A DNA stretch of 64,000 nt from a virus. Lineage: Duplodnaviria; Caudoviricetes. Below the pieces are notes generated by a model that saw nothing but the letters and a program-made list of their open reading frames with translations, did not search any database and was not told where the DNA came from. Every line of letters starts with the position of its first letter. The first letter of the stretch is position 1. The DNA is taken from positions 139,860 to 203,859 of IMG/VR virus record IMGVR_UViG_3300008740_000001; one strand, written 5' to 3'. This document shows positions 44,324 through 60,357 of this stretch, one piece after another. A program made the position numbers and the translations under genes.

Positions 44324-44348
44324 CATTTGAATCTATCTGATATATATT
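44320..44348 (+). promoter_or_regulatory. sigma70-type promoter
   Basis: TTGACA-17-TATATT. Confidence 0.7.
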
Positions 44349-44356
44349 ATAGGTGA

Positions 44357-44898: not shown

Positions 44899-45116
44899 GT
44901 CAGAGCCAGCACTACTATAATCCGCAAGTGGGCGATTTGGTGCGAATCATCGAGGGTACACACGATCCGAGCATGCCCGAAGATCGTATTGGTCTGATCG
45001 TGGAGATTCTGCAACAGGAACCGGGAGACGCCCCGCGCAGTCACGATACTTTTATGGTCAAGTTTGGCACCCGTACCTTGAAGTTCCACAAGATGTGGCT
45101 TGAAAAAGTCTCTTGA
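44895..45116 (+). CDS. Small SH3/KOW-like family protein
   Basis: QVGDLVRI..IGLIV..LEKVS. Confidence 0.65.
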   Translation: MSQSQHYYNPQVGDLVRIIEGTHDPSMPEDRIGLIVEILQQEPGDAPRSHDTFMVKFGTRTLKFHKMWLEKVS

Positions 45117-45167
45117 CATCTTTTTGACAAAAAACCCCTTGCACCTCGCGCTAGCCTGTGCTATATT
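45113..45167 (+). promoter_or_regulatory. Triple-box promoter copy 1
   Basis: TTGACA-5-TTGACA-9-TTGCAC-17-TATATT. Confidence 0.8.
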
Positions 45168-45192
45168 ATATACATGATTTACGGAGAGTGTC

Positions 45193-45525
45193 ATGTCTGA
45201 TTTTTATGTGAGCCGAATCGACGTTCGGGCTGGTGATCCTACTGCTGGCGAGCCCGCTGTTGTTGCAGAGGAGGTCGTCCTGACCCTCAAAGCGCCATAT
45301 CATGCTGCGGAGCGTAGTTACCAAAAGTTCCGCGCTTTGGGCATTGAGAACATTGGGCTGTACGAGTATTCTTTGAACAAAAAGTCTTACGCGGCTAGCC
45401 TCAAAGCGCAGAAGCGCAGGAAGTTCAAGAAGATCACGCTGGCTGACGTGGCAAAGGATTTGCAAGAGTTTATGGAGGAAGGCAAGCCCGATGCCGATCA
45501 AGAAACACACACTGAAAAGGGGTGA
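45193..45525 (+). CDS. Hypothetical protein
   Basis: GGAG RBS. Confidence 0.55.
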   Translation: MSDFYVSRIDVRAGDPTAGEPAVVAEEVVLTLKAPYHAAERSYQKFRALGIENIGLYEYSLNKKSYAASLKAQKRRKFKKITLADVAKDLQEFMEEGKPDADQETHTEKG

Positions 45526-45715
45526 TCTTGTTCGGCTTCGCACAGGCTGGCCCGAACATTGGCGTTATGGAATCGTGTTGCGAGTGAACAACCACAACCC
45601 TGAATGGCCACACTGTGATATACACTTTTTTCAAACACCAACATCAGAATCAAAACAATCTAACATCAATCAATATCTAACTGGACTGGAGAAGATAAAT
45701 GAGCAACACATTTGA
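45491..45715 (+). CDS. Small SH3/KOW-like family protein
   Basis: KRGDLVRL..YGIV. Confidence 0.6.
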   Translation: MPIKKHTLKRGDLVRLRTGWPEHWRYGIVLRVNNHNPEWPHCDIHFFQTPTSESKQSNINQYLTGLEKINEQHI

Positions 45716-45929
45716 AATCGGTGAGGCTGTCGTGGTCGATACCCGCAACTATTTGCAACACACAGAAGGCATCGTGATTGACGCATCATCGTCGGTCGAT
45801 GGGTGCAGCGAGGATATGTATACGGTCGAGGTCGAAAACCACGGTACGCATTTCTTCTATGGGTCTGATCTCCGAGCGGCAGCACCGGATGAACCTGAAG
45901 AAGAACCGGAGTGGAGGATTGCACTGTGA
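45699..45929 (+). CDS. Small SH3/KOW-like family protein
   Basis: EIGEAV..EGIV..YTVEV. Confidence 0.55.
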   Translation: MSNTFEIGEAVVVDTRNYLQHTEGIVIDASSSVDGCSEDMYTVEVENHGTHFFYGSDLRAAAPDEPEEEPEWRIAL

Positions 45930-46183
45930 AGTTGTCAAGCAAACAGATGCGCTCGCTCCACCAGCTTGTAAAGCACGAGGTGGAAACAATGGGCGCAGCG
46001 TGGAACATTGACGAGGAGGAGTACCAGCAGGACATTCGGGAAGTGTTGGGAGTGATCGAGGCTACGCAATCGCAAAGTAAACTTGTAGCTCAGGCTGCTG
46101 AGACAAGACGAGCCAGAGTTAGTGCAACGTCTGCACCCGAGCAGGTGTGGCCCAAACCAATAAATGATCCCGCCGACTGGTAG
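45911..46183 (+). CDS. Hypothetical protein
   Basis: GGAGG upstream of an internal GTG. Confidence 0.45.
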   Translation: MEDCTVKLSSKQMRSLHQLVKHEVETMGAAWNIDEEEYQQDIREVLGVIEATQSQSKLVAQAAETRRARVSATSAPEQVWPKPINDPADW

Positions 46184-46505
46184 GAGGCAAAAGAATATGC
46201 CAATGTGGAAACTAAACGAGAAGGTTGTTTGTCGTGATGGGTTTGAAGCCAGCATCCAAGCAAATGAAGGTGCATACTGTACGCCAAGAGTCACAGATGC
46301 AGATAACTATACAGCAGTCGAGATCGGCTTTCCAAGCCAGCGAGAAGAACTGATTATAGAATGGGCCGAAGATCCTCACCGCCCGACCGAGACTGTGTAT
46401 GGCTGGGTTCCTGTCGATAGGGCCTCGCTTATGATCGCCAAACATGGAGGCATCGTATCTGGTGAGGTTCCACCCGGTGTCATTCGACTGGAGGCCAAAA
46501 AGTAA
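46164..46505 (+). CDS. Conserved phage hypothetical protein (start probably 46197)
   Basis: C.DGF..SIQA..YC.PR..VEIGFPS..TVYGWVP. Confidence 0.65.
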   Translation: MIPPTGRRQKNMPMWKLNEKVVCRDGFEASIQANEGAYCTPRVTDADNYTAVEIGFPSQREELIIEWAEDPHRPTETVYGWVPVDRASLMIAKHGGIVSGEVPPGVIRLEAKK

Positions 46506-46541
46506 ACTTTGGCATTTCTCAAAGTTGTGAGATTAGATTAT

Positions 46542-46626
46542 GGCGCGGTGGTGGAATCGGTATACACAGCAGACTTAAAATCTGCCGCTTTTTAGCTTGC
46601 GGGTTCGAGTCCCGCCCGCGCTACCA
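46542..46626 (+). tRNA. tRNA-Leu(TAA)
   Basis: Acceptor GGCGCGG/CCGCGCT, anticodon arm GCAGA-CTTAAAA-TCTGC, long variable arm, T arm GCGGG-TTCGAGT-CCCGC, CCA. Confidence 0.95.
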
Positions 46627-46631
46627 TTTTT

Positions 46632-46730
46632 CGCTGCCCTGTTCAGCGGCGGGACTTGCGACCCGCCTTGAAGTGCAGACCGTCACTAGGAGCAGAGGCG
46701 AAGTCTACGGGCTTCGACCTAACCGCTGCT
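46632..46730 (+). ncRNA. Structured RNA in the tRNA-Leu 3' trailer (HDV/theta-ribozyme-like candidate)
   Basis: CAGCGG/CCGCTG, CGGG/CCCG, C(UACG)G-capped 10-bp hairpin, CUAA junction. Confidence 0.5.
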
Positions 46731-46801
46731 GCCACGAATCGGTGCTGGGGGTTTCTTTTTATTCGCTTCTAGTTATTATAGTATAGCTTGGAGGCTTTAT
46801 C

Positions 46802-46984
46802 ATGATTATCATTCCACTTGACAAACTTGAAAAACTACGAATCGAACAAGGCAAGGAGAGGCCAACCGACCGGCCCGCGCTGCAGTTGCCCGTGCCGGAG
46901 CATATGCCAGAAGCAATACACAGCGGGTCGGTTGAGCCGACCGAGGACGAAACCGGTGCTGCAATCATAGATTTCACCCTTTGA
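46802..46984 (+). CDS. Hypothetical protein
   Basis: GGAGG RBS; CTAGTTA upstream. Confidence 0.55.
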   Translation: MIIIPLDKLEKLRIEQGKERPTDRPALQLPVPEHMPEAIHSGSVEPTEDETGAAIIDFTL

Positions 46985-47035
46985 CATTCTCTTGACAACT
47001 TGGCTATTGACGCCACACCTCTCGCATGTTATATT
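46981..47035 (+). promoter_or_regulatory. Triple-box promoter copy 2
   Basis: TTGACA-5-TTGACA-9-TTGACG-17-TATATT; ATG 6 nt later. Confidence 0.8.
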
Positions 47036-47041
47036 ATATAC

Positions 47042-47212
47042 ATGAAACGAAGAAAGACAAAGGCACCGAAGTCGCGCAACTGGCTTGCGGTACATGCACG
47101 AATGGACTTGGCCACTGGTGGCGAGCGCAAAGGCGCTGGACCGCACGGAGGCCGGAAGCAGCGTTATAGCCGCAAGGTAAAGCACAAGGGGCGTACTAAT
47201 GAAAGTCGGTGA
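47042..47212 (+). CDS. Small basic protein
   Basis: K/R-rich; leaderless start at 47042. Confidence 0.55.
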   Translation: MKRRKTKAPKSRNWLAVHARMDLATGGERKGAGPHGGRKQRYSRKVKHKGRTNESR

Positions 47213-47360
47213 TCTGATCATGTCGAAAGACGGATACCATACTGCGCTAGTGGTGAGTATTGTCGGAGCCGCTGCTTTCAACCGCATCAAAGTGCTGGTT
47301 GTTGGCAGCGACACGCCCGAAATGTGCGATCCGAGAATGTGGGAGGTTATAAGTGGATAG
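47199..47360 (+). CDS. Small SH3/KOW-like family protein (53 aa, not in ORF track)
   Basis: MKVGDLIMS..ALVV..WEVISG. Confidence 0.65.
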   Translation: MKVGDLIMSKDGYHTALVVSIVGAAAFNRIKVLVVGSDTPEMCDPRMWEVISG

Positions 47361-47481
47361 CCTGCCTCAAACTCCCTTGGTGGCTTTTCTTTACATCTTT
47401 GCCTTCATAGGTCTTGGCATATTGATTAGTCAGGCCAGTCATATTTTATACGACATTTGGGAAGATTGGAGGAAGAAGTGA
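47353..47481 (+). CDS. Small membrane peptide (42 aa)
   Basis: Hydrophobic core; GGAGG upstream; overlaps both neighbours. Confidence 0.45.
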   Translation: MDSLPQTPLVAFLYIFAFIGLGILISQASHILYDIWEDWRKK

Positions 47482-47561
47482 GAAGTATATTGGTAACTAT
47501 TGGAATCGTGGTAACGATTTTCGTGCTTTCGTTTGCTATTACATTGGCGCTAACAGCATGA
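47478..47561 (+). CDS. Small membrane peptide (27 aa)
   Basis: GTGA/ATGA coupling; GGAGG upstream; almost entirely hydrophobic. Confidence 0.45.
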   Translation: MRSILVTIGIVVTIFVLSFAITLALTA

Positions 47562-47758
47562 AAGTCGGTGATTTGGTGCGCCCAACAGACAGAAACCTTC
47601 TATCGGGAAGCCGACGAGTTGGCATTGTTGTGCATGTGGATACCGGATGGGATAACAAACAAGTAAGAGTAAAGTGGGACATCCCCTCGTGGATGGACGA
47701 TGAGGGTTTGGCGTCTGAATCTCCCGAGAACCTAGAGGTGATCAGTGAAAGTCGGTGA
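47558..47758 (+). CDS. Small SH3/KOW-like family protein
   Basis: MKVGDLV..VGIV..VKW..LEVISESR. Confidence 0.75.
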   Translation: MKVGDLVRPTDRNLLSGSRRVGIVVHVDTGWDNKQVRVKWDIPSWMDDEGLASESPENLEVISESR

Positions 47759-47906
47759 CTTGGTTCGACATTGGTTGACAGAACAACTCGGTATTATCCT
47801 CGATGTTGGGTTTCACAATATCAGGGTTCAGTGGCTAGATGAGATCGTCTTTGGTGTTGAAGAACTTGATCCTCGCAACGTGGAGGTGGTCAGTGAAGCC
47901 CGGTGA
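47745..47906 (+). CDS. Small SH3/KOW-like family protein (53 aa, not in ORF track)
   Basis: MKVGDLVRH..LGII..VQW..VEVVSEAR. Confidence 0.7.
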   Translation: MKVGDLVRHWLTEQLGIILDVGFHNIRVQWLDEIVFGVEELDPRNVEVVSEAR

Positions 47907-48081
47907 TCTGGTAAGGCATTCCGAGCCTGTGGACCGGGCTGAGTTTGATGCTGTTGGTGTTGTTGTTGAGATTCAAGAAGATTGGATGAAGAACTGGTCA
48001 AAAGTAAAAGTAATGTGGACCGGCCTTCAGGTTCCAGTATGGGAACCAATCCGCTGCGTCAAACTCTTTACATCCTCTTGA
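47893..48081 (+). CDS. Small SH3/KOW-like family protein
   Basis: MKPGDLVRH..VGVV..VMW. Confidence 0.7.
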   Translation: MKPGDLVRHSEPVDRAEFDAVGVVVEIQEDWMKNWSKVKVMWTGLQVPVWEPIRCVKLFTSS

Positions 48082-48121
48082 CAAGATTCTTGTTGACAGC
48101 CACAAACCCTTGTGCTATAAT
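48067..48121 (+). promoter_or_regulatory. Triple-box promoter copy 3
   Basis: TTTACA-5-TTGACA-9-TTGACA-17-TATAAT. Confidence 0.8.
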
Positions 48122-48146
48122 ACATAGGTAAATCGGAGAACACACC

Positions 48147-48485
48147 ATGAATATCGAACTAACCGAAGATGAGATTATCATGATCCTTGACTGCATTGGA
48201 GCACGGATTGAGGATCTTCAAGAAACCTTGGCATGGACACCTGATTGCGGCGAATCTGCCGATCAGCTATCCGCATTGGCCGATCTGGATATGGACTTGC
48301 GCGAGCAGTCCAACCGGCGGGACGATGGCTGGAATGACGAAGTGACTGAAACCTTTACGACGAACCTAGTCCAGTCTGCCATCGACGACTGGCAATCAAA
48401 AGTAACCTCTAGCTCGAAGGCCGCCAGCAGGCGGCAGGCCCGGTGGCTAGGACTGAACCGAACAACCAACAAAGGGAATGAATAG
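48147..48485 (+). CDS. Hypothetical protein
   Basis: GGAG RBS. Confidence 0.55.
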   Translation: MNIELTEDEIIMILDCIGARIEDLQETLAWTPDCGESADQLSALADLDMDLREQSNRRDDGWNDEVTETFTTNLVQSAIDDWQSKVTSSSKAASRRQARWLGLNRTTNKGNE

Positions 48486-48486
48486 C

Positions 48487-48681
48487 ATGGCGATTTGCAT
48501 CGAATGTGAAGAAGAATACAACGACAAGCGGAAAGCCTTGGGCTACCGCACTTGCTTGGACTGTGGAGGTCGAGCAGCAAACAGGACCATCCGGGCCCGA
48601 AACGCTGCCAGCTTGCGGGCTATGACCCCGAACCACTACGAAGGCAGCGTGGAGGATATGTTTGACAAGCGCCCCTCTTGA
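48487..48681 (+). CDS. DksA/TraR-type C4 zinc-finger-like protein
   Basis: CIECEEEY..KRKALGYRTCLDCG. Confidence 0.55.
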   Translation: MAICIECEEEYNDKRKALGYRTCLDCGGRAANRTIRARNAASLRAMTPNHYEGSVEDMFDKRPS

Positions 48682-48685
48682 AGCC

Positions 48686-48740
48686 TTGACATTTACTTGA
48701 CAAGAAATGCCTTGCCATCTAGTGCAGGGCATGATATATT
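48686..48740 (+). promoter_or_regulatory. Triple-box promoter copy 4
   Basis: TTGACA-5-TTGACA-9-TTGCCA-17-TATATT; ATG 6 nt later. Confidence 0.8.
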
Positions 48741-48746
48741 ATATAC

Positions 48747-49031
48747 ATGAGCCAAAGGAGAAATCTCATGATGCCTGACTACGATCCAGATTTTCAAGTC
48801 TACACCGATATGGAGCAGTGTAACCGCTTTGAAGCCTCGTACTTTGATCACGAGGCCGAGTTGGTTGTTGCAGCATCTACCCTTCTGGAGTCGAAAGGAC
48901 CGGGCGGCTATGATGCTTCGCATACCGAGTTTTTGTCACAGTTTGGTTCAGGCACACTGGTGCTTCGTCGCACTAGCGAACAGTGCCCCGGCTGGTGGCG
49001 TGTTCACAACTTTATCCCGACGAGGTGGTAA
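48747..49031 (+). CDS. Hypothetical protein
   Basis: Downstream of promoter. Confidence 0.55.
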   Translation: MSQRRNLMMPDYDPDFQVYTDMEQCNRFEASYFDHEAELVVAASTLLESKGPGGYDASHTEFLSQFGSGTLVLRRTSEQCPGWWRVHNFIPTRW

Positions 49032-49337
49032 ATGGAACTTTGGGTCATGACAGGTACATATAACGGCGAACATTTCGCCACAACCCACTTGACCGAAGTC
49101 GGAGCATTGAAATCAATGATCTTCGACGTACTCCAGTTTCTTGGCATCGAGGAAGAAGAACATGCGAGAGCAGATCCCGACGCAGCAGAAAAGCCAGACT
49201 TGGAGTGGAGCCCGCAAGTGATTGGAGAAATGGAAGTTGATGAACTGCGGTCCCTAATGCGTAAGTACCACCAATACACTTGGGACAACTGCGAAGGGTA
49301 CTCCATAGAAATATGCCGGTGCCAACTGGAAGCATGA
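49032..49337 (+). CDS. Hypothetical protein
   Basis: GAGGTG RBS. Confidence 0.6.
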   Translation: MELWVMTGTYNGEHFATTHLTEVGALKSMIFDVLQFLGIEEEEHARADPDAAEKPDLEWSPQVIGEMEVDELRSLMRKYHQYTWDNCEGYSIEICRCQLEA

Positions 49338-49564
49338 TTAGTAAACTTAGCCGACAACCACGGCGCAGCTTTGCGCCCCGACGCAGCAAGGCCCCGAGAA
49401 TGGGGGATGTGGTGATCCATAAAGTTGATAAGTCTCTCGGTGTGGGTCTGGTTATGGAATGCTGGGGGATCGATTGCTTGGTTCAATGGGCCAAAACAAT
49501 CGTGGAGCCAGATCCATGCTGGCATCGCCGCGTCAAGCTAGAGGTGATTAGTGAAAGTCGGTGA
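49334..49564 (+). CDS. Small SH3/KOW-like family protein
   Basis: MGDVV..VGLV..VQW..LEVISESR. Confidence 0.7.
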   Translation: MISKLSRQPRRSFAPRRSKAPRMGDVVIHKVDKSLGVGLVMECWGIDCLVQWAKTIVEPDPCWHRRVKLEVISESR

Positions 49565-49748
49565 TTTGGTGATTATGCCGGGGTCGGGTATTGTTCCTGA
49601 AAGGCCAGCAATCGGCATTATAGTAACGCCCCGTGTCAACAGGGGAAAGACCCGCAGGACTGCCCGAATCGGTGTCATGTGGTCGGATGGCGATGGCGTG
49701 GATATGGAACCTTGTCACTGGCTGGAGGTGATTAGTGAAAGTCGGTGA
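49551..49748 (+). CDS. Small SH3/KOW-like family protein
   Basis: MKVGDLV..IGII..VMW..LEVISESR. Confidence 0.75.
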   Translation: MKVGDLVIMPGSGIVPERPAIGIIVTPRVNRGKTRRTARIGVMWSDGDGVDMEPCHWLEVISESR

Positions 49749-50019
49749 TTTAGTGGTTCAAGGCAATCGAGTCTTGATGATAAAGGGCAGTAAGCGCAAG
49801 TCGAAAATGATTGGTGTTGTTGTAGCGATCCGTGACATGCCGCCCGCCCGACCGGAAGAAACTGAAGTGTTGAGACAAATGATGGCTATGCTAGGGCGTC
49901 AGGTTGATGTGCTTTGGCCTAATGGCCATGTGTCTAAAAACTTTGCCGAGAACGGTTTAGAGGTTGTAACGTCCAAAGAAGAATGGCTGGAGGCTGTTAG
50001 TGACGTACAAGAAGGGTGA
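49735..50019 (+). CDS. Small SH3/KOW-like family protein
   Basis: MKVGDLV..IGVV..VLW..LEVV. Confidence 0.75.
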   Translation: MKVGDLVVQGNRVLMIKGSKRKSKMIGVVVAIRDMPPARPEETEVLRQMMAMLGRQVDVLWPNGHVSKNFAENGLEVVTSKEEWLEAVSDVQEG

Positions 50020-50206
50020 TTTGGTCGAAGTTAGGCGTATTCTGGGTGTGGGCGATGGGTTTCATCCACGGCGACGGGGCATAGTTCTGCAAACGACAGC
50101 GGCGATTTCTGACAACGATCCCAAAGGTGTTCTGGTGATGATCAACGACGGAGTTGAGGCTAGCGAGTGGTATGCTTGGCAACTTGAAATGATTAGTGAA
50201 AAGTAA
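50000..50206 (+). CDS. Small SH3/KOW-like family protein
   Basis: KKGDLVEV..RGIV..LEMISEK. Confidence 0.7.
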   Translation: MTYKKGDLVEVRRILGVGDGFHPRRRGIVLQTTAAISDNDPKGVLVMINDGVEASEWYAWQLEMISEK

Positions 50207-50260
50207 ACTTTGACATCTGAGTTTCTCCGCCGAGACTACTTACAAGCGACGAGGTGAAAA

Positions 50261-50437
50261 ATGAAAGAAGTTGATGTAAAGCTGAACACCGGGCAGATTG
50301 AGATGATCGAAGAAGCCTTGCAGCTATTGCGAGTAACTTATGACGGCAGCACTATCATTGGCAAGATCCGCCTGCGCGATGTGAAGTCGCTAGCAAGGAA
50401 GATGCACGAGGCGAAAGAGGACGCAGAAACGCCTTGA
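50261..50437 (+). CDS. Small hypothetical protein (58 aa, not in ORF track)
   Basis: GAGGTG RBS; CTACTTA upstream; stop inside the next promoter. Confidence 0.55.
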   Translation: MKEVDVKLNTGQIEMIEEALQLLRVTYDGSTIIGKIRLRDVKSLARKMHEAKEDAETP

Positions 50438-50488
50438 CACACTCTTGACAACTGAACTCTTGACAGGCTAGCCCGCAGATGGTATATT
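50434..50488 (+). promoter_or_regulatory. Triple-box promoter copy 5
   Basis: TTGACA-5-TTGACA-9-TTGACA-17-TATATT; ATG 6 nt later. Confidence 0.85.
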
Positions 50489-50494
50489 ATAGGC

Positions 50495-50725
50495 ATGATG
50501 ATTGGTGATCTAGTGCTGGTTCATTGGGGCAACAGCGACTATTCCGGCGCAGAGGGTGTCGATTGGGGTCGTTCCCCCGGCATCGTCATTGGCGAGGTCC
50601 GGTACTGGAATGAGGACGCCCGAGCCAGCAACTCGCCCGTGTGTGGCGATGTTGATCTATGGTTTCGTAACGAAAGAATCTCATACAATATCGGACGATG
50701 CGAGGTGATCAATGAAAGTGCCTAG
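50495..50725 (+). CDS. Small SH3/KOW-like family protein
   Basis: MIGDLV..PGIV..CEVINESA. Confidence 0.7.
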   Translation: MMIGDLVLVHWGNSDYSGAEGVDWGRSPGIVIGEVRYWNEDARASNSPVCGDVDLWFRNERISYNIGRCEVINESA

Positions 50726-50894
50726 CCTAAAGATTGGTGATCTGGTTGTTCGCACCTATGGAGAAGGACAAAGGCCGATGGCGCTCGTCGTTGGCCGGTT
50801 CAATGCGTTGATCGTAAAAGTAAAGTGGCTGGGCTCTGACATGATCGAAGATGTGAACAGTCAATATCTGGAGGTAATCAATGAAAGTCGGTGA
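50712..50894 (+). CDS. Small SH3/KOW-like family protein
   Basis: KIGDLV..VKW..LEVINESR. Confidence 0.75.
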   Translation: MKVPSLKIGDLVVRTYGEGQRPMALVVGRFNALIVKVKWLGSDMIEDVNSQYLEVINESR

Positions 50895-51078
50895 CTTGAT
50901 AACTCTCACATATGAGGGTGAACCACTTGATGATCGGGCTGTGGGCATTGTTACCTGTATTGATCCCGAAGAACTTGGCGACGACGAAGAAGTTGAAGTA
51001 TGGTGGATCGGTCATTTCACCGGCCACAGCAATCACTCAACATGGAATCTGGAGGTTATTAGTGATGCAAGTAGGTGA
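50881..51078 (+). CDS. Small SH3/KOW-like family protein
   Basis: MKVGDLI..VGIV..VWW..LEVISDASR. Confidence 0.75.
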   Translation: MKVGDLITLTYEGEPLDDRAVGIVTCIDPEELGDDEEVEVWWIGHFTGHSNHSTWNLEVISDASR

Positions 51079-51295
51079 CATAGTTCAGGGCGAAGCATGC
51101 AGCAACTTGGATGCTGTTGGCATCATTATATCGAAATCAACATCACCACCGTGGGCTGGAGGTCCAGACCGAATCGTGGTGTGCATAACAAAGAGCGCCG
51201 CGAACAATCATACAGACAAGTTTCAAGCAGGTAGTCACGCATCAACAAAGGTCAGTTATAATCTTTGGAAGGTCATTAGTCATGCAAGTCGGTGA
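51065..51295 (+). CDS. Small SH3/KOW-like family protein
   Basis: MQVGDIV..VGII..WKVISHASR. Confidence 0.7.
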   Translation: MQVGDIVQGEACSNLDAVGIIISKSTSPPWAGGPDRIVVCITKSAANNHTDKFQAGSHASTKVSYNLWKVISHASR

Positions 51296-51494
51296 TTTGG
51301 TGAGAAACTACATGACGGAACAACTGGGTACTGTTGTTGCTGAGTCGTGTCGCGTTACTGGTGGTAACGATACTGACGAGCCTCATAGTTTTCAAGTGCT
51401 GTGGACTACTACGGGCGATTTTGGAGGCGAAGTTGGGTCTAAAGAATGGACAGGCCCGACGTTTGTGGAGATATTGGATGATGATCGGTCTTGA
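51282..51494 (+). CDS. Small SH3/KOW-like family protein
   Basis: MQVGDLV..LGTV..VLW..VEIL. Confidence 0.75.
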   Translation: MQVGDLVRNYMTEQLGTVVAESCRVTGGNDTDEPHSFQVLWTTTGDFGGEVGSKEWTGPTFVEILDDDRS

Positions 51495-51545
51495 CATTTA
51501 CTTGACAAAGAACCTCTTGACAGCGACCGAGGCATATGGTATATT
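51491..51545 (+). promoter_or_regulatory. Triple-box promoter copy 6
   Basis: TTGACA-5-TTGACA-9-TTGACA-17-TATATT. Confidence 0.85.
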
Positions 51546-51569
51546 ATAGGCACAATCAAGGAGATCCCT

Positions 51570-51917
51570 GTGGGTTATAGATCAGAAGTTTTGCTAGCAG
51601 TCAGCGCGAAGGCTTACGCGCTGCTTACCACCAAAATCGCCAAAGGCGGGCCATTCGCGGAGTTGTTTAGTGATGAGTGCACATCGGACCAGCGCGATTA
51701 TGACAACGATGGCAGCAAGATGTTTCTTTGGGGAAGTGTCAAGTGGTACGACAGTTATCCAGAGGTCGCTGCCGTCGAGCAGTTTATGTCAACTCTTGAT
51801 GAAAACGATATGGAAGAAGAATACAAGTTTGTCCGTGTCGGTGAGGACATGGACGACAACGAAGGACGAGGCTGGGGTTTTGATGACATCTATATCACCC
51901 GCTCAATCAACTACTAA
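51570..51917 (+). CDS. Conserved phage hypothetical protein
   Basis: MGYRSEV..KWYDSY..FVRVGED; AGGAG RBS. Confidence 0.7.
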   Translation: MGYRSEVLLAVSAKAYALLTTKIAKGGPFAELFSDECTSDQRDYDNDGSKMFLWGSVKWYDSYPEVAAVEQFMSTLDENDMEEEYKFVRVGEDMDDNEGRGWGFDDIYITRSINY

Positions 51918-52106
51918 TCGAGGCTGTCACGCGAGACACCAATAACTATAAGTGAGGGCTCATTGTCTCTAACGAGCCCATGCGTCAGGATAGGCTCACT
52001 AACTATGAGCATGGCGCGAACCCGCAAGGGAGTGATAGAGAGACTAGCGAGGGCAACGCGGCGAGAACAGCGCAGCCTGTGGTGTCCGTGATGGGCAACC
52101 TCGATT
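51916..52106 (+). ncRNA. Candidate structured non-coding RNA (~190 nt)
   Basis: Three-segment closing helix plus internal hairpins and a possible pseudoknot. Confidence 0.6.
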
Positions 52107-52142
52107 AGTAAACTTTATAGCAACCAAAAACAGGATCATAAC

Positions 52143-52397
52143 ATGACCGACGAAACTTATTCACACGTTGACTTGACACCCGAAGAACTCCGATTTTTGC
52201 TGATGATGCGCGAACTGGCAACTAACTGGGTTGAACTAGATTTGACTGAACGTGGCCGCGCATGTATTGACATGCTGGTGCTTGAAGGCTTGGCAGAACG
52301 CAGGAGTGAACAAGGCGCATGGGTGAACCAATGGCGTCTGACCCCATATGGTCAGATCGAAGCAGATAACCGTACTTGGCCTTCGGCGTTTGCTTGA
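52143..52397 (+). CDS. Small winged-helix-like hypothetical protein
   Basis: L..EGLAE...WRLTPYG pattern. Confidence 0.5.
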   Translation: MTDETYSHVDLTPEELRFLLMMRELATNWVELDLTERGRACIDMLVLEGLAERRSEQGAWVNQWRLTPYGQIEADNRTWPSAFA

Positions 52398-52448
52398 CAA
52401 ACACTTGACAATGATTCCGTTGACAACTGTACTCACAGATGCTATATT
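52394..52448 (+). promoter_or_regulatory. Triple-box promoter copy 7
   Basis: TTGACA-5-TTGACA-9-TTGACA-17-TATATT; ATG 6 nt later. Confidence 0.85.
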
Positions 52449-52454
52449 ATAGAT

Positions 52455-52634
52455 ATGAAGGTCGGAGATTTAGTCAAAAGCTATTCTGATGGTCGTATCG
52501 GAATGGTAATGGAAGAAGAAATATATCAAGGGCTTCCCGGTCAGTGGGTCGAATACTTTGATGACCGAAATGATTGGAAATGGTATTCTTATGATGAGCG
52601 TTTCGACGTGGAGGTGATCAGTGAAAGTCGGTGA
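52455..52634 (+). CDS. Small SH3/KOW-like family protein (59 aa, not in ORF track)
   Basis: MKVGDLVKS..IGMV..VEVISESR. Confidence 0.7.
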   Translation: MKVGDLVKSYSDGRIGMVMEEEIYQGLPGQWVEYFDDRNDWKWYSYDERFDVEVISESR

Positions 52635-52836
52635 TCTGATTGCATGGACTTGGCAACTCAAAGCGGATAGCTGGGAGTCTCACAGGTTCACAGGAGTAGT
52701 CTTAGAAGTGGAAGAAATCACCGACTCTATTGACGAGTTTCTGTATACGATCCTCCGCGTGGTGGATAACACAGGCATGGCGACTACTGTTCGTAGCGAT
52801 ACGACGAATCTGGAGGTGGTCAGTGAAAGTCGGTGA
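52621..52836 (+). CDS. Small SH3/KOW-like family protein
   Basis: MKVGDLI..TGVV..LEVVSESR. Confidence 0.75.
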   Translation: MKVGDLIAWTWQLKADSWESHRFTGVVLEVEEITDSIDEFLYTILRVVDNTGMATTVRSDTTNLEVVSESR

Positions 52837-52999
52837 TTTAGTACAGATTAGAGGCACTAGCATCGTGGATCTTGTTACGCGGGTTGAGACTGTCCCTAAC
52901 TTTTACAAGACGCTGCCACCTACATTATGGGTGATTCTGAATGGTCAGCCCGTGCCGTACAAAGCTAGCAAGCTAGAGGTCATCAATGCAACCCGGTGA
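52823..52999 (+). CDS. Small SH3/KOW-like family protein
   Basis: MKVGDLVQI..LEVINATR. Confidence 0.7.
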   Translation: MKVGDLVQIRGTSIVDLVTRVETVPNFYKTLPPTLWVILNGQPVPYKASKLEVINATR

Positions 53000-53249
53000 T
53001 CTTGTCGAAATCACGCGAGCATCGGTCGGCATCCCAGCCGGAACGGTTGCTCTGATCATTGAGAAGTACGAAACAGGCGCGTCATTGGATGACTGGCAGG
53101 CGACGATCTTTGTCGTTTGGCCGACTGGCGAAGTTGGCAAGCGTGGAGCGCGACGATACCTTGCGCGGGATCTAGATGTGATCAGCAGACCCTTGAAAAG
53201 TAAACTTGTAGCTCCGCTTCAGACAGAGGTTCCGGGCAAAAATGCTTGA
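52986..53249 (+). CDS. Small SH3/KOW-like family protein
   Basis: MQPGDLVEI..ALII..VVW..LDVIS. Confidence 0.7.
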   Translation: MQPGDLVEITRASVGIPAGTVALIIEKYETGASLDDWQATIFVVWPTGEVGKRGARRYLARDLDVISRPLKSKLVAPLQTEVPGKNA

Positions 53250-53300
53250 CATTCTCTTGACACCATTTTCCTTGACAAACGCCCCCCAGCATGATACATT
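53246..53300 (+). promoter_or_regulatory. Triple-box promoter copy 8
   Basis: TTGACA-5-TTGACA-9-TTGACA-17-TACATT. Confidence 0.85.
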
Positions 53301-53323
53301 ATAGATGTAGCAACGGAGAAGTA

Positions 53324-53452
53324 ATGCTTGAACTTATGACCCCCCTATTTTGGATGTGCGCTTGCTGGGCATGCGGCATCTTTACTGGCCTTGGCCTTGG
53401 TGCCGCGATGGGCCGCGAACAGATGGCTCGCGTTATGCGAGAGGAGTGCTAA
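53324..53452 (+). CDS. Small membrane peptide (42 aa, not in ORF track)
   Basis: GGAG RBS; hydrophobic core. Confidence 0.5.
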   Translation: MLELMTPLFWMCACWACGIFTGLGLGAAMGREQMARVMREEC

Positions 53453-53453
53453 A

Positions 53454-53798
53454 ATGGCATATTTGACAAAAGACGATATTGTGATCATCAAGAACGGATC
53501 TGACACTTTGCAATCGCGGGTGATGGATGTTCGCTTTCGCCGCTACCGTAGTAGCTACAAGGATCGCAAGACCGGCAAGAAGAAAACTCGAATGAAATCA
53601 ATGCCTTACGCTGTTTGTTCAGTGTTCATTGGCACATCCGTCCCGGCTGGGACCGAGTTTCTGATCCCCGGCTACAAGCTGCGGAACGAGGTCAAGGATG
53701 GAGAAAAGCTGTTGCTGCTCCGCGACCAGTACGCCGCCGAGTTTGATGGCGCATGGGTCGAGAAGATTCTGACCGAAAGCAAGGAAAAGCGAGTATGA
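53454..53798 (+). CDS. Basic hypothetical protein
   Basis: GAGGAG RBS supports start at 53454. Confidence 0.6.
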   Translation: MAYLTKDDIVIIKNGSDTLQSRVMDVRFRRYRSSYKDRKTGKKKTRMKSMPYAVCSVFIGTSVPAGTEFLIPGYKLRNEVKDGEKLLLLRDQYAAEFDGAWVEKILTESKEKRV

Positions 53799-54007
53799 TC
53801 GTCGGTGGCTTGTATAAGTTTGAGTGCACTGCTGCGGTGACCGTGAATGGTCGGATGGCTCTTTACTTGGGCGAGGATTTCATCCATCGAGACGATGGCG
53901 TAACTGTCGAGAATCACAAGGTTTTGTTGGTTGGCGAGTCAGGCCCCACAATCATTGATCGTGGCCTGTTGAAGCACATGAGTCCAATCGCACGGGAGCA
54001 AGAGTAA
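53795..54007 (+). CDS. Small SH3-like protein
   Basis: ATGA-coupled; MIVGGLYK. Confidence 0.55.
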   Translation: MIVGGLYKFECTAAVTVNGRMALYLGEDFIHRDDGVTVENHKVLLVGESGPTIIDRGLLKHMSPIAREQE

Positions 54008-54011
54008 ACTT

Positions 54012-54305
54012 ATGAGATGTTGCAACGATGCCGTCATCGAGAAATGGGCCAATGGTTTGCCCGCGAAGAACCATCGAGGTAGCCTGACCGCTGACGAGGA
54101 TGGAGCACTGTGGAGTTACGATCTGAAGATCGGCCAACGTACCGGCGATGCCTGTATCGTTGCAGACTTTACCGCGCCCGCTGGCGGGTTTCGGAGTATG
54201 ACCACAAGCCAGCACATCGGCAAGGCTCGTTTCCATGCGGATCTGGTGATGCACCCGACCGTATGGGCCACCTCGCCTCTGTCCAACAGGTTCTATCAGG
54301 CTTGA
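54012..54305 (+). CDS. Conserved hypothetical protein
   Basis: LWSYDLKIG..SMTTSQH. Confidence 0.6.
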   Translation: MRCCNDAVIEKWANGLPAKNHRGSLTADEDGALWSYDLKIGQRTGDACIVADFTAPAGGFRSMTTSQHIGKARFHADLVMHPTVWATSPLSNRFYQA

Positions 54306-54356
54306 CATTCTCTTGACAAAGAACCTGTTGACATGATGCCTCCTGCATGGTATATT
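54302..54356 (+). promoter_or_regulatory. Triple-box promoter copy 9
   Basis: TTGACA-5-TTGACA-9-TTGACA-17-TATATT. Confidence 0.85.
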
Positions 54357-54386
54357 ATAGGGGTAAATGAGGCAAAGGAGTAAGCC

Positions 54387-54593
54387 ATGAACGAGAACGT
54401 ACCGACCCCGACCCCCTTTGAGGCGACCGCACTGGCGTGCGAGAACATGATCACGTCGTTTGGTGTGCTGTCTAGCATGCTCGCAGCGCAAGAAGGTGCT
54501 CGCAGTAATGTGGAGGTTCAGACGATGATCTCAACCATGCTTGAAGCCTCGGCTAGCATCTTCGCCGCGATGGGCGCGGCAGCGGAGGCATAG
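54387..54593 (+). CDS. Hypothetical helical protein
   Basis: AGGAG RBS. Confidence 0.55.
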   Translation: MNENVPTPTPFEATALACENMITSFGVLSSMLAAQEGARSNVEVQTMISTMLEASASIFAAMGAAAEA

Positions 54594-54636
54594 AGTGTAC
54601 TCAAAATCAAGATATGTAGTACCCGAAGCGGTAGGC

Positions 54637-54804
54637 ATGATCGGAGCATTGGTCAAGCCGAAGATCGCATCGAAGGGTTGTCGCACCGGGATCCATATCG
54701 TGATGGAATACCGGGTCAGCAAGTCAGGCGAGCGAGTAAACTTTGCCGGGAACCCCGACGAGTGGCACAACCTAGAAAACTTTGAGATCGTGAGTCGAAA
54801 GTGA
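54637..54804 (+). CDS. Small SH3/KOW-like family protein
   Basis: MIGALV..FEIVS. Confidence 0.5.
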   Translation: MIGALVKPKIASKGCRTGIHIVMEYRVSKSGERVNFAGNPDEWHNLENFEIVSRK

Positions 54805-54807
54805 TGC

Positions 54808-54862
54808 TTGACATTCTCTTGACAAAGATTCTGTTGACATTGAAACAACCACCTGCTATAAT
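54808..54862 (+). promoter_or_regulatory. Triple-box promoter copy 10
   Basis: TTGACA-5-TTGACA-9-TTGACA-17-TATAAT. Confidence 0.85.
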
Positions 54863-54905
54863 GTATATGTAAGGTTGAGAAACACCCGAGACTAGAGAGG
54901 TAATC

Positions 54906-55772
54906 ATGGGAAACTACGCTGGAACCGTCCGATGTGGACACTGCTATCAACGAGGCCACAACAAGGCTGGCTGTCCAAAGCGCAAAGAGCGCGTGGAGAA
55001 ACTTCGGGAGACTGACCCCGGTAACTGGCAGGTTCAGCGTGCTGATCAAGAACGAGAAGCGCGGGTTGCGCGAGCAAAGAAGCCTCGGACCTGCACCTAT
55101 TGCAAGGCTAACCGGAAAACTGTTTCTTACTATCGTTATGACGATCTGGATGACGCCGAGAAAAACGCACTGGTCCGTGCCAGTGAAGATTCATACGATG
55201 ACTGGATCGAGAAAGACACGCTCTATGGCACAGGCAGCGAGCGCGGCCTAAGCCACTCAATCCGTGCGTGTAAGTATCGGAAGCGCGACCTTGCCGAAGC
55301 TACCGAGAGCACGGCAAAGATGCGTCAGGCGATTCTGGAGCGCATGAAGGCGACCGGGCTGGGCCTAGGCGCAGGTATCGACTTTGCGGAAGATTCCCAC
55401 GCTGCTAGCAGCTATGGTCAAGGTGGACAGATGGTTGTCACTGGAATCCAGTGGGATCGAATCACCAGCGTCATCGAGAGCAGTATCCACAATCAAGAAC
55501 TTGTAGACCTGACTAATGTTCGCTATCTCATGAGCCACAACAAGCCATACGATGCGGTCTGCCGCGCCATCCTACCGAACAATGTCACGGGTTCCGACAC
55601 CCAGCACAGCCGCTACTCTGAATACATCGACCGGGTTGCACATCCGGTCAGTGCCGAGAAGATCGATAGTCAAGTGCCCGATGGTTGGCTTGAAGCAACA
55701 TCTGATGCCACTCAATCGTTCATCGGTCAGTACCTTGATCGGAACGTCAAGAGTCGGCACCGTAACAACTGA
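54906..55772 (+). CDS. Zinc-knuckle-containing protein
   Basis: CGHCYQRGHNKAGC (CX2CX4HX4C), plus CTYC and H..RAC. Confidence 0.65.
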   Translation: MGNYAGTVRCGHCYQRGHNKAGCPKRKERVEKLRETDPGNWQVQRADQEREARVARAKKPRTCTYCKANRKTVSYYRYDDLDDAEKNALVRASEDSYDDWIEKDTLYGTGSERGLSHSIRACKYRKRDLAEATESTAKMRQAILERMKATGLGLGAGIDFAEDSHAASSYGQGGQMVVTGIQWDRITSVIESSIHNQELVDLTNVRYLMSHNKPYDAVCRAILPNNVTGSDTQHSRYSEYIDRVAHPVSAEKIDSQVPDGWLEATSDATQSFIGQYLDRNVKSRHRNN

Positions 55773-55790
55773 TTAGTAAACTTTCACAAT

Positions 55791-55812
55791 GCTCGCCCCG
55801 AGAGGGGCGGGC
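55791..55812 (+). terminator. GC-rich GNRA hairpin (terminator or processing element)
   Basis: GCTCGCCCC-GAGA-GGGGCGGGC. Confidence 0.5.
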
Positions 55813-55867
55813 TTGACATTCTCTTGACAAGAAATCTCTTGATCTTTCAGACTGCCTATGGTACTAT
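55813..55867 (+). promoter_or_regulatory. Triple-box promoter copy 11
   Basis: TTGACA-5-TTGACA-9-TTGATC-17-TACTAT. Confidence 0.8.
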
Positions 55868-55894
55868 GTATAGGTAATCGAGAGGAACACACAC

Positions 55895-56737
55895 ATGGCC
55901 CGAATCACCTACCGCACTCGCCTTCAAGACTTGCTAGCCAAGCCCTACCTGCCTTCGGGCGAACGGCGCTTTGCCCAATCGTTGCTCGACCACTACAATC
56001 GCAAGGGCTACATGAGCGCAGGCCGCGCCCGTTGTGTGCGTCAGATGGAGGAGCGTTATGCGACTGCGCCTGTGGTCAATAGTAACCTTGTGGCGGAACT
56101 CGATAATCTGCGGAATCGGATCGAGGCTGGCAATCCGGGCTACGAGGCTAGCTGGGATCACAACTTTGTAAAGTCTCTGACCGAGCAGGCGCAAGCTGGC
56201 CGCGATCTGTCCGAACGTCAGAAAGAGATTCTTGAAAAACTCAAAGGTCGGTGGAGCGAGGAGGCAACCGCTAGCGCAGCAGCATGGCGCACCGGGTTCA
56301 CCTCCGAGCAGCGCGAGCGATTCAACGTGATGGTTGACTACTACGCGACAAGTGGATATTATGGGAGCATTGTCGAGGCTAGCAAGAGTAACCCTAGCTT
56401 CACCCCGACCGAGAAGCAGTATCGCGCTGTGACCGAAAACAAGTACGCGATGAAGATTCTCGCAGGTTGGGAGGGCGCTCAAAAGTACGCGACTGGCAGC
56501 ATGGTTGCAGTCCGTAAGGGTGCGCCAATGGCTCTCAGGCTGGCTTGTGGCGGGAACGCGGCACCTAACCCGGTCGTCATCGTAGGAGCCAACACAAGGG
56601 CCCCCACCAGTGCTTGCCGAGGCAACAAGATTTACAAGGTGCTGCCGGTTGGCAACGCCCAGACTTTCGAGGTAGAGGAACGCCATCTGAAGCGCGTCCC
56701 AGCTTCAATCACCAAGCGGAAGAAAAAGAGGGCTTGA
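55895..56737 (+). CDS. Conserved phage hypothetical protein with C-terminal SH3-like domain
   Basis: FVKSLTEQ..LSERQKEIL; C-terminal TGSMV..YKVLP..EERHLK; GAGG RBS. Confidence 0.7.
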   Translation: MARITYRTRLQDLLAKPYLPSGERRFAQSLLDHYNRKGYMSAGRARCVRQMEERYATAPVVNSNLVAELDNLRNRIEAGNPGYEASWDHNFVKSLTEQAQAGRDLSERQKEILEKLKGRWSEEATASAAAWRTGFTSEQRERFNVMVDYYATSGYYGSIVEASKSNPSFTPTEKQYRAVTENKYAMKILAGWEGAQKYATGSMVAVRKGAPMALRLACGGNAAPNPVVIVGANTRAPTSACRGNKIYKVLPVGNAQTFEVEERHLKRVPASITKRKKKRA

Positions 56738-56788
56738 CATACTCTTGACAAGAAACCCCTTGATCTTTTCCCCCCCGCATGCTATATT
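56734..56788 (+). promoter_or_regulatory. Triple-box promoter copy 12
   Basis: TTGACA-5-TTGACA-9-TTGATC-17-TATATT. Confidence 0.8.
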
Positions 56789-56845
56789 ATATATGTAAGG
56801 TGAGAGAACGCCTCCCACCCACTTCAACAAAGAGAGAGAGAAAAA

Positions 56846-57919
56846 ATGGCTGTTGACTTCAAAACCTTCCTCGCGTGTGTCCGTCCTGTGATTGATGCTC
56901 GCTTCCCTATCCTCGTTCGCGGTCGTCATGGCGTCGGCAAGTCGCAAGTCGTCTATCAAGTGGCTGGCGATCTTGGCCTGCCTGTGGTCGAGCGACGAGC
57001 CAGCCAGATGACCGAAGGCGACCTGCTGGGTCTGCCCGACAATCGTGATGTGCTGGTGAATGGCCGCAAGGCTACCACCTTCAACCCGCCGGAGTGGTTC
57101 CTGACCGCTTGTACCGAGCCTGTCGTCCTGTTCTTGGATGAGGTTGATCGTGCGACCACGGAGGTCCGTCAGGGTATCTTTGAGTTGTGCGACAGCCGCA
57201 AGATTGCGGGTAACTCGCTGCACGAGGGTACGATCATCATCGCAGCCGTCAACGGCGGCGAGCACGGTGCCCAGTATCAGGTGGGCGAAATGGACCCTGC
57301 CGAGTTGGACCGCTACACGGTGTTTGATGTTGAGCCTTCCGTCGAGGACTGGCTGACATGGGCAAAGGATAATGTTGATTCTGTCCTGTGGGACTTCATC
57401 AACACCAACCGCCCTCACTTGGAGCATGGCGGCGACTTTGAGCCAAACAAGGTCTACCCTTCCCGACGCTCTTGGGACCGTCTGAACCAGACTGTGACCC
57501 CGCTGGGCGTGTTTGAGGAAGGTGGCGACCTTGATGTGCTGTTCAACCTCTCTAGCGCGTTCTGCGGCTTTGAGGCTGCGGTAGCGATTCGTGACTTTGT
57601 TGCTTCCTATGACCGTCAGGTGACTATCGAGGACATTCTTGACGATGGTAAGATCGACAAGACTACTGATTGGACGATCAACGAGCACTCTGCACTGGTC
57701 GAGAAGATGGAAGCATCTGAAACCTTCAAGGCAGAACTGACCGACGATCAGATCGTCAACCTTGCCCGCTGGTTTGTAACCTTGCCGAGTGAGGTAGCCA
57801 TGAAGCTGTGGACCGTCCTTGGTGATGGTGATGTTCAGAACGTCATCCGCACCCACCAGTCCACCACTCCCGAAGGTGTTGCGATCAGCGATCACCTCGT
57901 GACCATCCTTGGGGGCTAA
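56846..57919 (+). CDS. MoxR-like AAA+ ATPase
   Basis: Walker A GRHGVGKS, EGDLLGLP, Walker B LFLDEVDRA, AVN, DPAELDR, PSRRSW. Confidence 0.9.
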   Translation: MAVDFKTFLACVRPVIDARFPILVRGRHGVGKSQVVYQVAGDLGLPVVERRASQMTEGDLLGLPDNRDVLVNGRKATTFNPPEWFLTACTEPVVLFLDEVDRATTEVRQGIFELCDSRKIAGNSLHEGTIIIAAVNGGEHGAQYQVGEMDPAELDRYTVFDVEPSVEDWLTWAKDNVDSVLWDFINTNRPHLEHGGDFEPNKVYPSRRSWDRLNQTVTPLGVFEEGGDLDVLFNLSSAFCGFEAAVAIRDFVASYDRQVTIEDILDDGKIDKTTDWTINEHSALVEKMEASETFKAELTDDQIVNLARWFVTLPSEVAMKLWTVLGDGDVQNVIRTHQSTTPEGVAISDHLVTILGG

Positions 57920-57933
57920 ACACCCCCGTAAGG

Positions 57934-58017
57934 GCCTCAAGGTGGTCGTTCAGGGCTCTCTCTCTCAACAACCATACCCTGACACCACCTTGAGGCTCCT
58001 TGCCCTAGAAGGGCAAA
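57934..58017 (+). other. Long intergenic hairpin with CU-repeat loop plus second hairpin
   Basis: 13-bp GCCTCAAGGTGGT/ACCACCTTGAGGC + 6-bp TCAGGG/CCCTGA; TTGCCCT-AGA-AGGGCAA. Confidence 0.65.
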
Positions 58018-58052
58018 GAGTAACCTTTCTGAGAACTGAGAGAGAAAAACGC

Positions 58053-58107
58053 TTTACACATTCTTGACAACTTTTCCCTTGATCTTTGCTCCCGAGCATG
58101 CTATATT
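58053..58107 (+). promoter_or_regulatory. Triple-box promoter copy 13
   Basis: TTTACA-5-TTGACA-9-TTGATC-17-TATATT. Confidence 0.8.
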
Positions 58108-58146
58108 ATATATGTAAGGTTGAGCTACACCCTCTAGGAGATTTCT

Positions 58147-60328: not shown

Positions 60329-60357
60329 TTGACATTGAGTTGTAAATGTGTTATATT
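60329..60357 (+). promoter_or_regulatory. sigma70-type promoter
   Basis: TTGACA-17-TATATT. Confidence 0.7.

Follow-up and report, generated by a model that had tools for sequence, protein, structure and literature searches.

Thirteen candidate promoter cassettes with two position-locked upstream TTGACA boxes at the gene-module joints of a marine phage

The promoter-early stem-loop (PeSL) of T4-type phages is composed of a stem-loop terminator just upstream of a strong sigma-70-like early promoter, with a Shine-Dalgarno (SD) sequence and a start codon on the 3' side (Arbiol et al. 2010, PMC2839356; Comeau et al. 2014, PMC4122927). Mini-circles arise when neighbouring PeSLs recombine. In this study, we analyzed the final 64 kb (64,000 nucleotides, hereafter the window) of IMG/VR virus record IMGVR_UViG_3300008740_000001, a single contig of 203,859 bp (whole genome labelled G000), in which thirteen cassettes with three tandem TTGACA-type boxes stand between mostly tiny genes. 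The boxes are numbered from the upstream side, and box 3 takes the place of the -35. The cassettes are PeSL-like and separate from the PeSL family itself, since function, setting and exchange role match while the build differs; the novelty is the upstream element of two boxes. With a probability of about 0.55, the cassettes are portable early promoters carrying a clade-specific upstream element that is read by a factor other than the sigma region 4 bound to box 3.

As in the PeSL, a strong promoter, here predicted to be early and of sigma-70 type, is repeated and followed by an SD sequence and a start codon. It likewise heads ORFans in a hyperplastic region of a T4-superfamily genome, as 42 of the 44 module proteins lack a Pfam family and the capsid protein belongs to the T4 gp23 family (199 bits). 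Insertion, deletion and replacement joints between relatives also lie at the cassettes, with 379 internal homology ends within 30 bp of a cassette in the related loci against 92 ± 9 at random positions. The differences concern the build. The PeSL has a stem-loop upstream of its promoter, whereas no hairpin was found at these cassettes; the upstream region is AT-rich in the PeSL, whereas here two position-locked TTGACA boxes are found and only 6 nt are AT-rich; and these cassettes abut the upstream coding sequence, usually supplying its stop codon.

Three other described systems are close to the upstream boxes. UP elements, as in rrnB P1 and the early promoters of T4 and T5, are A/T tracts contacted in the minor groove by the C-terminal domain of the RNA polymerase alpha subunit (alpha-CTD). 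The boxes likewise stand just ahead of a strong -35, in the zone of about -40 to -60, but they hold a specific hexamer twice, with base-specific conservation and an 11-bp period. Tandem activator sites beside the -35 are represented by the lambda CII site TTGC-N6-TTGC, the Pho boxes of PhoB/PhoP and the HLR1 of RpaB. Short direct repeats with a 10-11-bp period, a fixed promoter register and one regulator for many promoters are the points of likeness; those sites usually overlap or replace the -35 of weak promoters, whereas the boxes here lie 15 and 26 bp upstream of it in a near-consensus promoter. The stoperators of cluster A mycobacteriophages (the L5 gp71 sites) are single 13-bp sites of temperate phages, bound by the prophage repressor and mostly located outside promoters. 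They resemble the boxes as short asymmetric motifs that occur in many copies and one orientation along a co-oriented gene block and include a -35-like TTGACA, and differ in that fixed triplets inside the promoters of a T4-like phage are found here. In a limited full-text search of open-access papers, nothing was found on promoters preceded by repeated or tandem TTGACA boxes, and the Felix O1 genome paper contains no account of doubled boxes. Among natural promoters, those used early by phages rank with the strongest, and they have been employed as models and as tools. Every element of the cassettes matches the general bacterial consensus, and a two-hexamer element fixed to the base pair points to either an undiscovered regulator or an undiscovered way of engaging RNA polymerase.

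Sequence, geometry and conservation of the cassettes

The pattern TTGACA-N5-TTGACA-N9-TTGnnn-N17-TGnTATAtT describes 13 sites, all on the plus strand, and every one of the thirteen start coordinates given in the initial annotation of the window was correct. The sites are listed below; open reading frame is abbreviated as ORF.

45113..45167 (+): cassette 1, boxes 1 and 2 TTGACA, box 3 TTGCAC, TGc TATATT, followed by an SD-bearing gene from 45193
46981..47035 (+): cassette 2, box 3 TTGACG, ATG at 47042, 7 nt past the -10, without SD
48067..48121 (+): cassette 3, box 1 TTTACA, box 3 TTGACA, -10 TATAAT, upstream ORF ending at the box 2 TGA
48686..48740 (+): cassette 4, box 3 TTGCCA
50434..50488 (+): cassette 5, box 3 TTGACA, ATG at 50495, 7 nt past the -10, without SD
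51491..51545 (+): cassette 6, all three boxes perfect
52394..52448 (+): cassette 7, all three boxes perfect, ATG at 52455, 7 nt past the -10, without SD
53246..53300 (+): cassette 8, all three boxes perfect, -10 TACATT
54302..54356 (+): cassette 9, all three boxes perfect
54808..54862 (+): cassette 10, all three boxes perfect, -10 TATAAT, heading a 288-aa ORF
55813..55867 (+): cassette 11, box 3 TTGATC, heading a 280-aa ORF
56734..56788 (+): cassette 12, box 3 TTGATC, heading a MoxR/CobS-like AAA ATPase gene (56846-57919)
58053..58107 (+): cassette 13, box 1 TTTACA, box 3 TTGATC, heading a DUF2201/VWA gene (58147-59442)

When TTGACA-N5-TTGACA-N9-TTG was scanned with up to two mismatches, exactly these 13 plus-strand sites were returned (0.19 expected from shuffles), and with three mismatches no further credible copy was found on either strand of the whole 203,859-bp genome. 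Box 2 was TTGACA in 13/13 and box 3 varied (TTGACA, TTGACG, TTGCAC, TTGCCA and, three times, TTGATC), both as annotated, while box 1 was TTGACA in 11 and TTTACA in two. All 13 sites carry the elements of a sigma-70-type extended -10 promoter, that is, TTGnnn, a spacer of 17 bp and TGn before a -10 of the TATAtT/TATAAT type. The cassette core can be read with high confidence as a host-type extended -10 promoter. The spacer lengths had been annotated as invariant; this holds in the present genome, while across the clade about 5% of the copies are shifted by 1 bp.

The IMG/VR collection was scanned with the exact pattern, boxes 1 and 2 being required to be perfect. The scan gave 88 stretches, spread over at least 64 contigs; many contigs measured 185-205 kb and bore several copies. 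Protein similarity placed 86 of the 88 loci in one marine phage clade with genomes of about 185-205 kb, and 82 matched the present genome directly; the nucleotide identity of the clade to this genome is about 70%, even in the conserved AAA and VWA genes. Using the core promoter as the sole anchor and counting from box 3, an upstream TTGACA was found at -15 in 232 cases and at -26 in 196, with about ten for each 1-bp shift and nearly zero at other positions. In ten whole relatives, TTGACA pairs within 20 bp were collected without requiring a promoter, and the gap of the 103 pairs was 5 bp in 69, 9 bp in seven and 20 bp in seven. The pairs share one strand and fall into a single cluster of about 13-20 kb, and the reversed-pattern controls totalled three matches. 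The geometry is thus kept in the ten relatives as well as in the core-anchored test, and the non-conservation that would have counted against the annotated "dedicated regulatory architecture" was not found. That proposal gains support, since the geometry persists at about 70% identity and the upstream boxes are under their own selection.

A family profile was made from 341 unique cassettes, for which the reversed control gave one match. In box 3, T, T and G reached 97-100%, A and C about 80%, and the sixth base was free; this TTG-strong, ACA-weak profile is the familiar one of a -35 read by sigma region 4. In boxes 1 and 2, T2, A4, C5 and A6 were close to 100%, position 1 was T or C, and position 3 was G, sometimes T or A. 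Sites that had not been selected by the exact-box scan carried the variants CTGACA, TTTACA, TTAACA and CTAACA, with ACA almost unchanged. With the extended -10 as the sole anchor, the fidelity to TTGACA ranked box 2 > box 1 > box 3, so the annotated observation that the upstream boxes are better conserved than the working -35 holds in the clade, where they are closer to consensus. The difference in base preference suggests that boxes 1 and 2 have a different reader and are not read as a -35. Because the spacer sequences vary, the boxes appear to be selected for themselves and not carried along by copying. The 9-bp spacer between boxes 2 and 3 is 71% AT in its first 6 nt and 28% AT in its last 3 nt, a C-rich triplet.

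Two further explanations of the boxes were considered and dropped. Boxes 1 and 2 could have been the -35 elements of overlapping promoters, but the 341-cassette profile has no -10-like element 17 bp past box 1 or box 2, which rules this out. Cassettes with perfect boxes 1 and 2 and a seemingly lost box 3 were also inspected; all 12 retain TTG and are mostly orthologous, and they are uninformative on the dispensability of the -35.

Promoters elsewhere had been annotated as single-box, and the strong promoters of this genome confirm it. About twenty other strong promoters across the genome read TTGACw-17-TGTTATATTA, and their upstream 30 bp are typically UP-element-type A-tracts. Where the single-box promoters hold A-tracts, the cassettes have their two boxes, which fill -45 to -61. 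An UP element would present A/T tracts at about -38 to -59 and no base-specific hexamer, while C-TTGACA is found twice there. Since the upstream elements differ (two boxes versus an A-tract), the phage has two classes of host-type promoter. The cassette cluster itself is flanked by single-box promoters:

44320..44348 (+): left-flank promoter, single-box consensus TTGACA-17-TATATT, without upstream boxes
60329..60357 (+): right-flank promoter, single-box, with extended -10

A-tract promoters were located at 28833, 95502, 142013, 144449, 153456, 167503 and 169462 of G000, with window positions 2154, 4590, 13597, 27644 and 29603 for those within the window. The A-tract single-box class heads tRNA and DNA-metabolism genes. 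The AT fraction of the spacer between -35 and -10 is 0.42 in the cassettes versus 0.60 in the single-box promoters.

Cassettes as joints between gene modules

The genes behind the cassettes form one block:

45193..59442 (+): module block, thirteen co-oriented modules of one to seven mostly tiny genes each

The MoxR/CobS-like AAA ATPase and the DUF2201/VWA protein behind cassettes 12 and 13 are the only module proteins with assigned families. Each cassette is followed by a gene on the same strand, usually with an SD sequence and a start codon 20-45 nt past the -10. Behind cassettes 2, 5 and 7, the ATG stands exactly 7 nt past the -10 and no SD sequence is present, which would make the mRNAs leaderless and agrees with transcription starting 7 nt past the -10. 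On the other side, the stop codon of the upstream gene lies within box 1 (its TGA) in eight of the 13 cassettes, as had been annotated, and the box 2 TGA ends the previous ORF in two more, giving 10/13 with a stop in box 1 or box 2. In the cassettes of relatives (n = 322), the upstream gene stops at the box 1 TGA in 151 and at the box 2 TGA in 52 (203/322, 63%). With an upstream stop and a downstream start, the cassette is a complete joint between genes. The T-R-R that follows the -10 was considered as a three-frame stop and rejected, as only 4/322 ORFs stop there; it is mostly a TAA or TAG leading into the SD sequence. There were 16 terminator-like hairpins where shuffles gave 13.3, without any recurring at the cassettes; at this chance level, the modules would run into one another.

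The suggestion in the initial annotation that the cassettes offer homology for shuffling modules is supported by the roughly 4-fold enrichment of homology endpoints given above and by a one-gene difference between two relatives. Twenty-five breaks are one-sided: homology of 80% or more reaches as far as a cassette in each of the two genomes, and the 700 bp beyond it are unrelated. Locus L058 has a flank, a cassette, a 66-aa gene, a second cassette and the next gene, while in locus L012 a single cassette joins that flank directly to that next gene. Their flanks are about 90% identical and the joint falls inside the cassette, making this a clean insertion or deletion of one gene that mirrors the RB49/phi1 ORFan192 case of the PeSL (PMC2839356, PMC4122927). 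PeSL-type module shuffling thereby extends to a branch of the T4 superfamily that is marine and distant, and does not require a stem-loop.

Candidate readers of boxes 1 and 2

In the reading that we prefer, the cassettes would act in a hypervariable accessory region of a marine T4-superfamily phage. The sigma-70-type RNA polymerase of the host would use box 3 as the -35, together with the 17-bp spacer, the TG and the TATAtT -10, and would start 7 nt past the -10. Boxes 2 and 1 would then be fixed at -50 to -45 and -61 to -56, in the UP-element zone, and would bind a protein that reads them head to tail, on one helix face given the 11-bp period. The reader would touch the box-3-bound polymerase from a class-I-like position, and alpha-CTD could still reach the six AT-rich base pairs at the start of the 9-bp spacer. 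Such a tandem-bound, class-I-like factor is suggested by the 11-bp period, the rigid 15-bp distance, the profile unlike that of a -35 and the location in the UP zone. All 13 modules would be placed under one shared control, apart from the UP-type promoters, and recruitment or timed shut-off would both fit. The reader would probably be encoded by the host, or would be a phage protein other than the 86-aa sigma-region-4-like protein described below. Each cassette would end the preceding gene and start the next one (by promoter and leader or by a leaderless start), and would supply homology for the gain, loss and exchange of modules.

Several points weigh against this reading. The boxes exactly match the -35 consensus, the preceding C included, so a sigma-region-4-type reader remains the simplest idea, and since a core promoter this close to consensus can do without an activator, a positive role need not be assumed. 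No RNA runs containing this phage were found. The family profile is partly biased because the collection search demanded exact boxes 1 and 2; the check on unselected sites keeps the contrast between positions 1 and 3 and the ACA, but its sites exclude perfect ones. The breakpoint enrichment may partly stem from a lower conservation of any non-coding joint.

A sigma-4-like factor binding in phase had been named in the initial annotation, together with one candidate protein:

23473..23733 (+): 86-aa protein, Cys-rich N-terminal half and sigma-70 region 4.2 helix-turn-helix

This protein is the sole match to Pfam Sigma70_r4 in the genome (42 bits, cut-off 24.1). Ten homologues were obtained (L091-L100), nine of them from the 12 near-complete cassette-bearing relatives. 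The family (about 80-90 aa) has four invariant cysteines and a fifth nearly invariant one in the N-terminal half, in the pattern C-x(3-5)-C ... C-x4-CR-x-W ... NC, and a helix-turn-helix consensus of SFARIKQIExKAL. Searched against PDB, the family profile matched region 4.2 of RpoD/SigA (E about 7e-6). The AlphaFold (AF2) model had a predicted local distance difference test score (pLDDT) of 83 and its best fold match was region 4 of Taq sigma-A (1ku3), a weak match, as is expected for so small a domain; no fold match was obtained for the Cys-rich half. The family could be a zinc-binding, free-standing region-4 protein of the phage transcription machinery. Its gene was missing from G001, G007 and G012 in protein, Pfam, family-profile and synteny searches (positive control of the family-profile search, E = 3e-42). 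These three genomes are 95-100% complete and have normal cassettes, so the protein is not an obligatory reader.

The phage also has a sigma factor of its own. A 234-aa protein at 52813-53517 of G000 (L090:1342-2046, outside the window) matches PHROG 234 'late sigma transcription factor' (E = 2e-7), a family whose annotation covers the T4 gp55-type late sigmas, and gives a weak Sigma70_r2 match. With this late sigma present, the 86-aa protein may belong to late transcription. A split sigma, in which the 86-aa protein would complete a sigma with region 2 only, was dropped as unneeded; by eye, the 234-aa protein seems to have a C-terminal helix-turn-helix. T4-type late-promoter consensus was observed as eight copies of TATAAATAG on the minus strand and none on the plus strand, seven of them reading tTATAAATAgt, yet the plus strand carries most long ORFs. 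The copies are at 171856 (window 31997), 157036 (window 17177), 116779, 108768, 89494, 89478, 67377 and 29686 of G000. One possibility is that they are late promoters in antisense orientation, another that the signal is a plus-strand one, read as TACTATTTATA.

The proposal that the 86-aa protein binds the boxes in phase, and either shuts off the early cassettes at the switch to later transcription or boosts them, was weakened. The protein is a true Sigma70_r4 homologue whose helix-turn-helix is nearest to region 4.2 of housekeeping sigmas, its gene is conserved in nine of the 12 near-complete relatives, and its expression can be assigned to the replication-gene block and not to a cassette. However, it is absent from three of the 12 despite their normal cassettes, and a role in late transcription would also account for it. 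In the alignment to sigma70, moreover, Phe, Ala and Lys replace R584, E585 and R588 of E. coli. R584 of sigma70 reads the C of TTGACA, a base in the best-kept part of boxes 1 and 2. We regard this protein as an unlikely reader. Region 4 of the host sigma-70 holoenzyme itself would explain why boxes 1 and 2 match the -35 consensus to the letter and share the preceding C of box 3, why they replace the A-tract of the other promoters of the phage, and why a phage reader conserved in every genome was not found; the boxes would then serve for extra docking, for the 'RNA polymerase trapping' of the annotation or holding near the promoter, or as an UP substitute. Against this, a holoenzyme brings only a single region 4, and three polymerases cannot fit on boxes spaced by 11 and 15 bp; mere docking would not demand base-pair-exact spacing; box 1 and box 2 have no -10 partner; and the invariant ACA with variable G3 and T1 is the reverse of box 3. 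Host docking is thus rather improbable in our estimate. A broader form of the sigma idea, which we regard as a tentative possibility, treats boxes 1 and 2 as an undescribed upstream promoter element in which a domain of the sigma-region-4 type reads -35-consensus boxes away from the usual -35 contact. The reader could then be a free region-4-like protein in most genomes, its place being taken elsewhere by a functional equivalent, or the host transcription machinery could make a second contact. If true, the element would be a sequence-specific UP replacement, independent of alpha-CTD and hence of alpha-modifying takeover enzymes.

The direct repeat with an 11-bp period at a fixed position upstream of the -35, found in 13/13 cassettes and as a 5-bp gap in 69/103 pairs of the relatives, would also suit tandem binding by an OmpR/PhoB-type winged-helix response regulator of the host, which would tie the modules to a host signal such as phosphate or light. 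The kept core T-n-A-C-A resembles known half-sites. TTnACA is the half-site of Bacillus PhoP and of cyanobacterial RpaB, and TGTCA, on the other strand, belongs to the E. coli Pho box. No winged-helix regulator (Trans_reg_C domain) is encoded in the phage, so a host factor would be required, while the preference for G at the third base is untypical of those half-sites. One genome each of 185,579 bacterial and archaeal species was scanned for such host use, giving 18 loci; three were fragments of this phage clade binned into metagenome-assembled genomes (MAGs), and the other 15 were single sites in unrelated taxa, about the chance expectation. Apart from the mis-binned phage fragments, none of these genomes holds several such sites. 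A response regulator is judged very unlikely. Least probable is that the upstream boxes have no DNA-binding role and are kept by the copying of cassette recombination, by the supply of stop codons or as a shuffling substrate. The cassettes are indeed recombination joints and 63% of them give the upstream gene its stop codon, but copying would homogenise the spacers, which vary while boxes and spacing persist at about 70% identity, and a stop role would constrain a TGA in one frame and not T2 and ACA of both boxes or the 11/15 spacing.

The phage genome, binned fragments and module contents

The source record has terminal repeats, its completeness is rated 100%, and the phage was detected in marine metagenomes. 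The genome encodes the alpha subunit of DNA polymerase III (PolIII), a class II ribonucleotide reductase, GroEL and ClpP. By nucleotide and protein search, no close cultured relatives were found among 50,697 phage records. We read this uncultured marine phage as a distant T4-superfamily member. The final 100 bases of the contig repeat exactly from base 20, and the overlap extends to base 119; this assembly overlap fits a circular or circularly permuted assembly.

Host promoter mimicry was considered for the WOR-3 'chromosome' CP070664.1, which holds eight box pairs and five full cassettes in dispersed positions. It was rejected, since the flanking genes (PolIII alpha, AAA ATPase) have 70-85% protein identity to the phage clade and the loci are thus binned phage fragments and not host promoters. 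This MAG, deposited as a 2.85-Mb 'chromosome', carries phage-clade fragments at no fewer than five (at least five) dispersed places, which suggests concatenated bin contigs. Host use by a Neomarinimicrobiota MAG contig and a Legionellales MAG contig was rejected likewise, as they are also phage-clade contigs. The MAG-derived loci of the clade are L113, L125-L130 (CP070664.1), L105 (NZIV01000080.1) and L115, and such MAG-borne fragments are an unreliable guide to the host.

The G+C content is 50-56% in the cassette cluster (window 44001-60000) versus 41-48% in the remaining window; for the module block (45193-59442), the corresponding values are 50-56% and 42-48%. A tRNA-Leu(UAA) gene lies at 46542-46626, inside module 1 among small ORFs, and this tRNA gave the only Rfam match within the cluster. 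Nine gene junctions inside the modules have a fixed 14-nt overlap of start and stop (window 47199, 47745, 47893, 49551, 50712, 51282, 52621, 52823 and 52986); in most of them a GGAGGTGA-type SD sequence lies within the end of the upstream gene, and those at 47199 and 51282 are the weaker ones. A loose pattern, M..(I/V)GDLV...G...W...E.I.E, recurs in many tiny module proteins (45193-54804), with pairwise identity up to 36%, suggesting a paralogous small-protein family, possibly SH3- or KOW-like, that was multiplied in the modules. The MK(V/I)GDLV... gene (MKVGDLV... at cassette 7) is also found behind a cassette in the relative L115.

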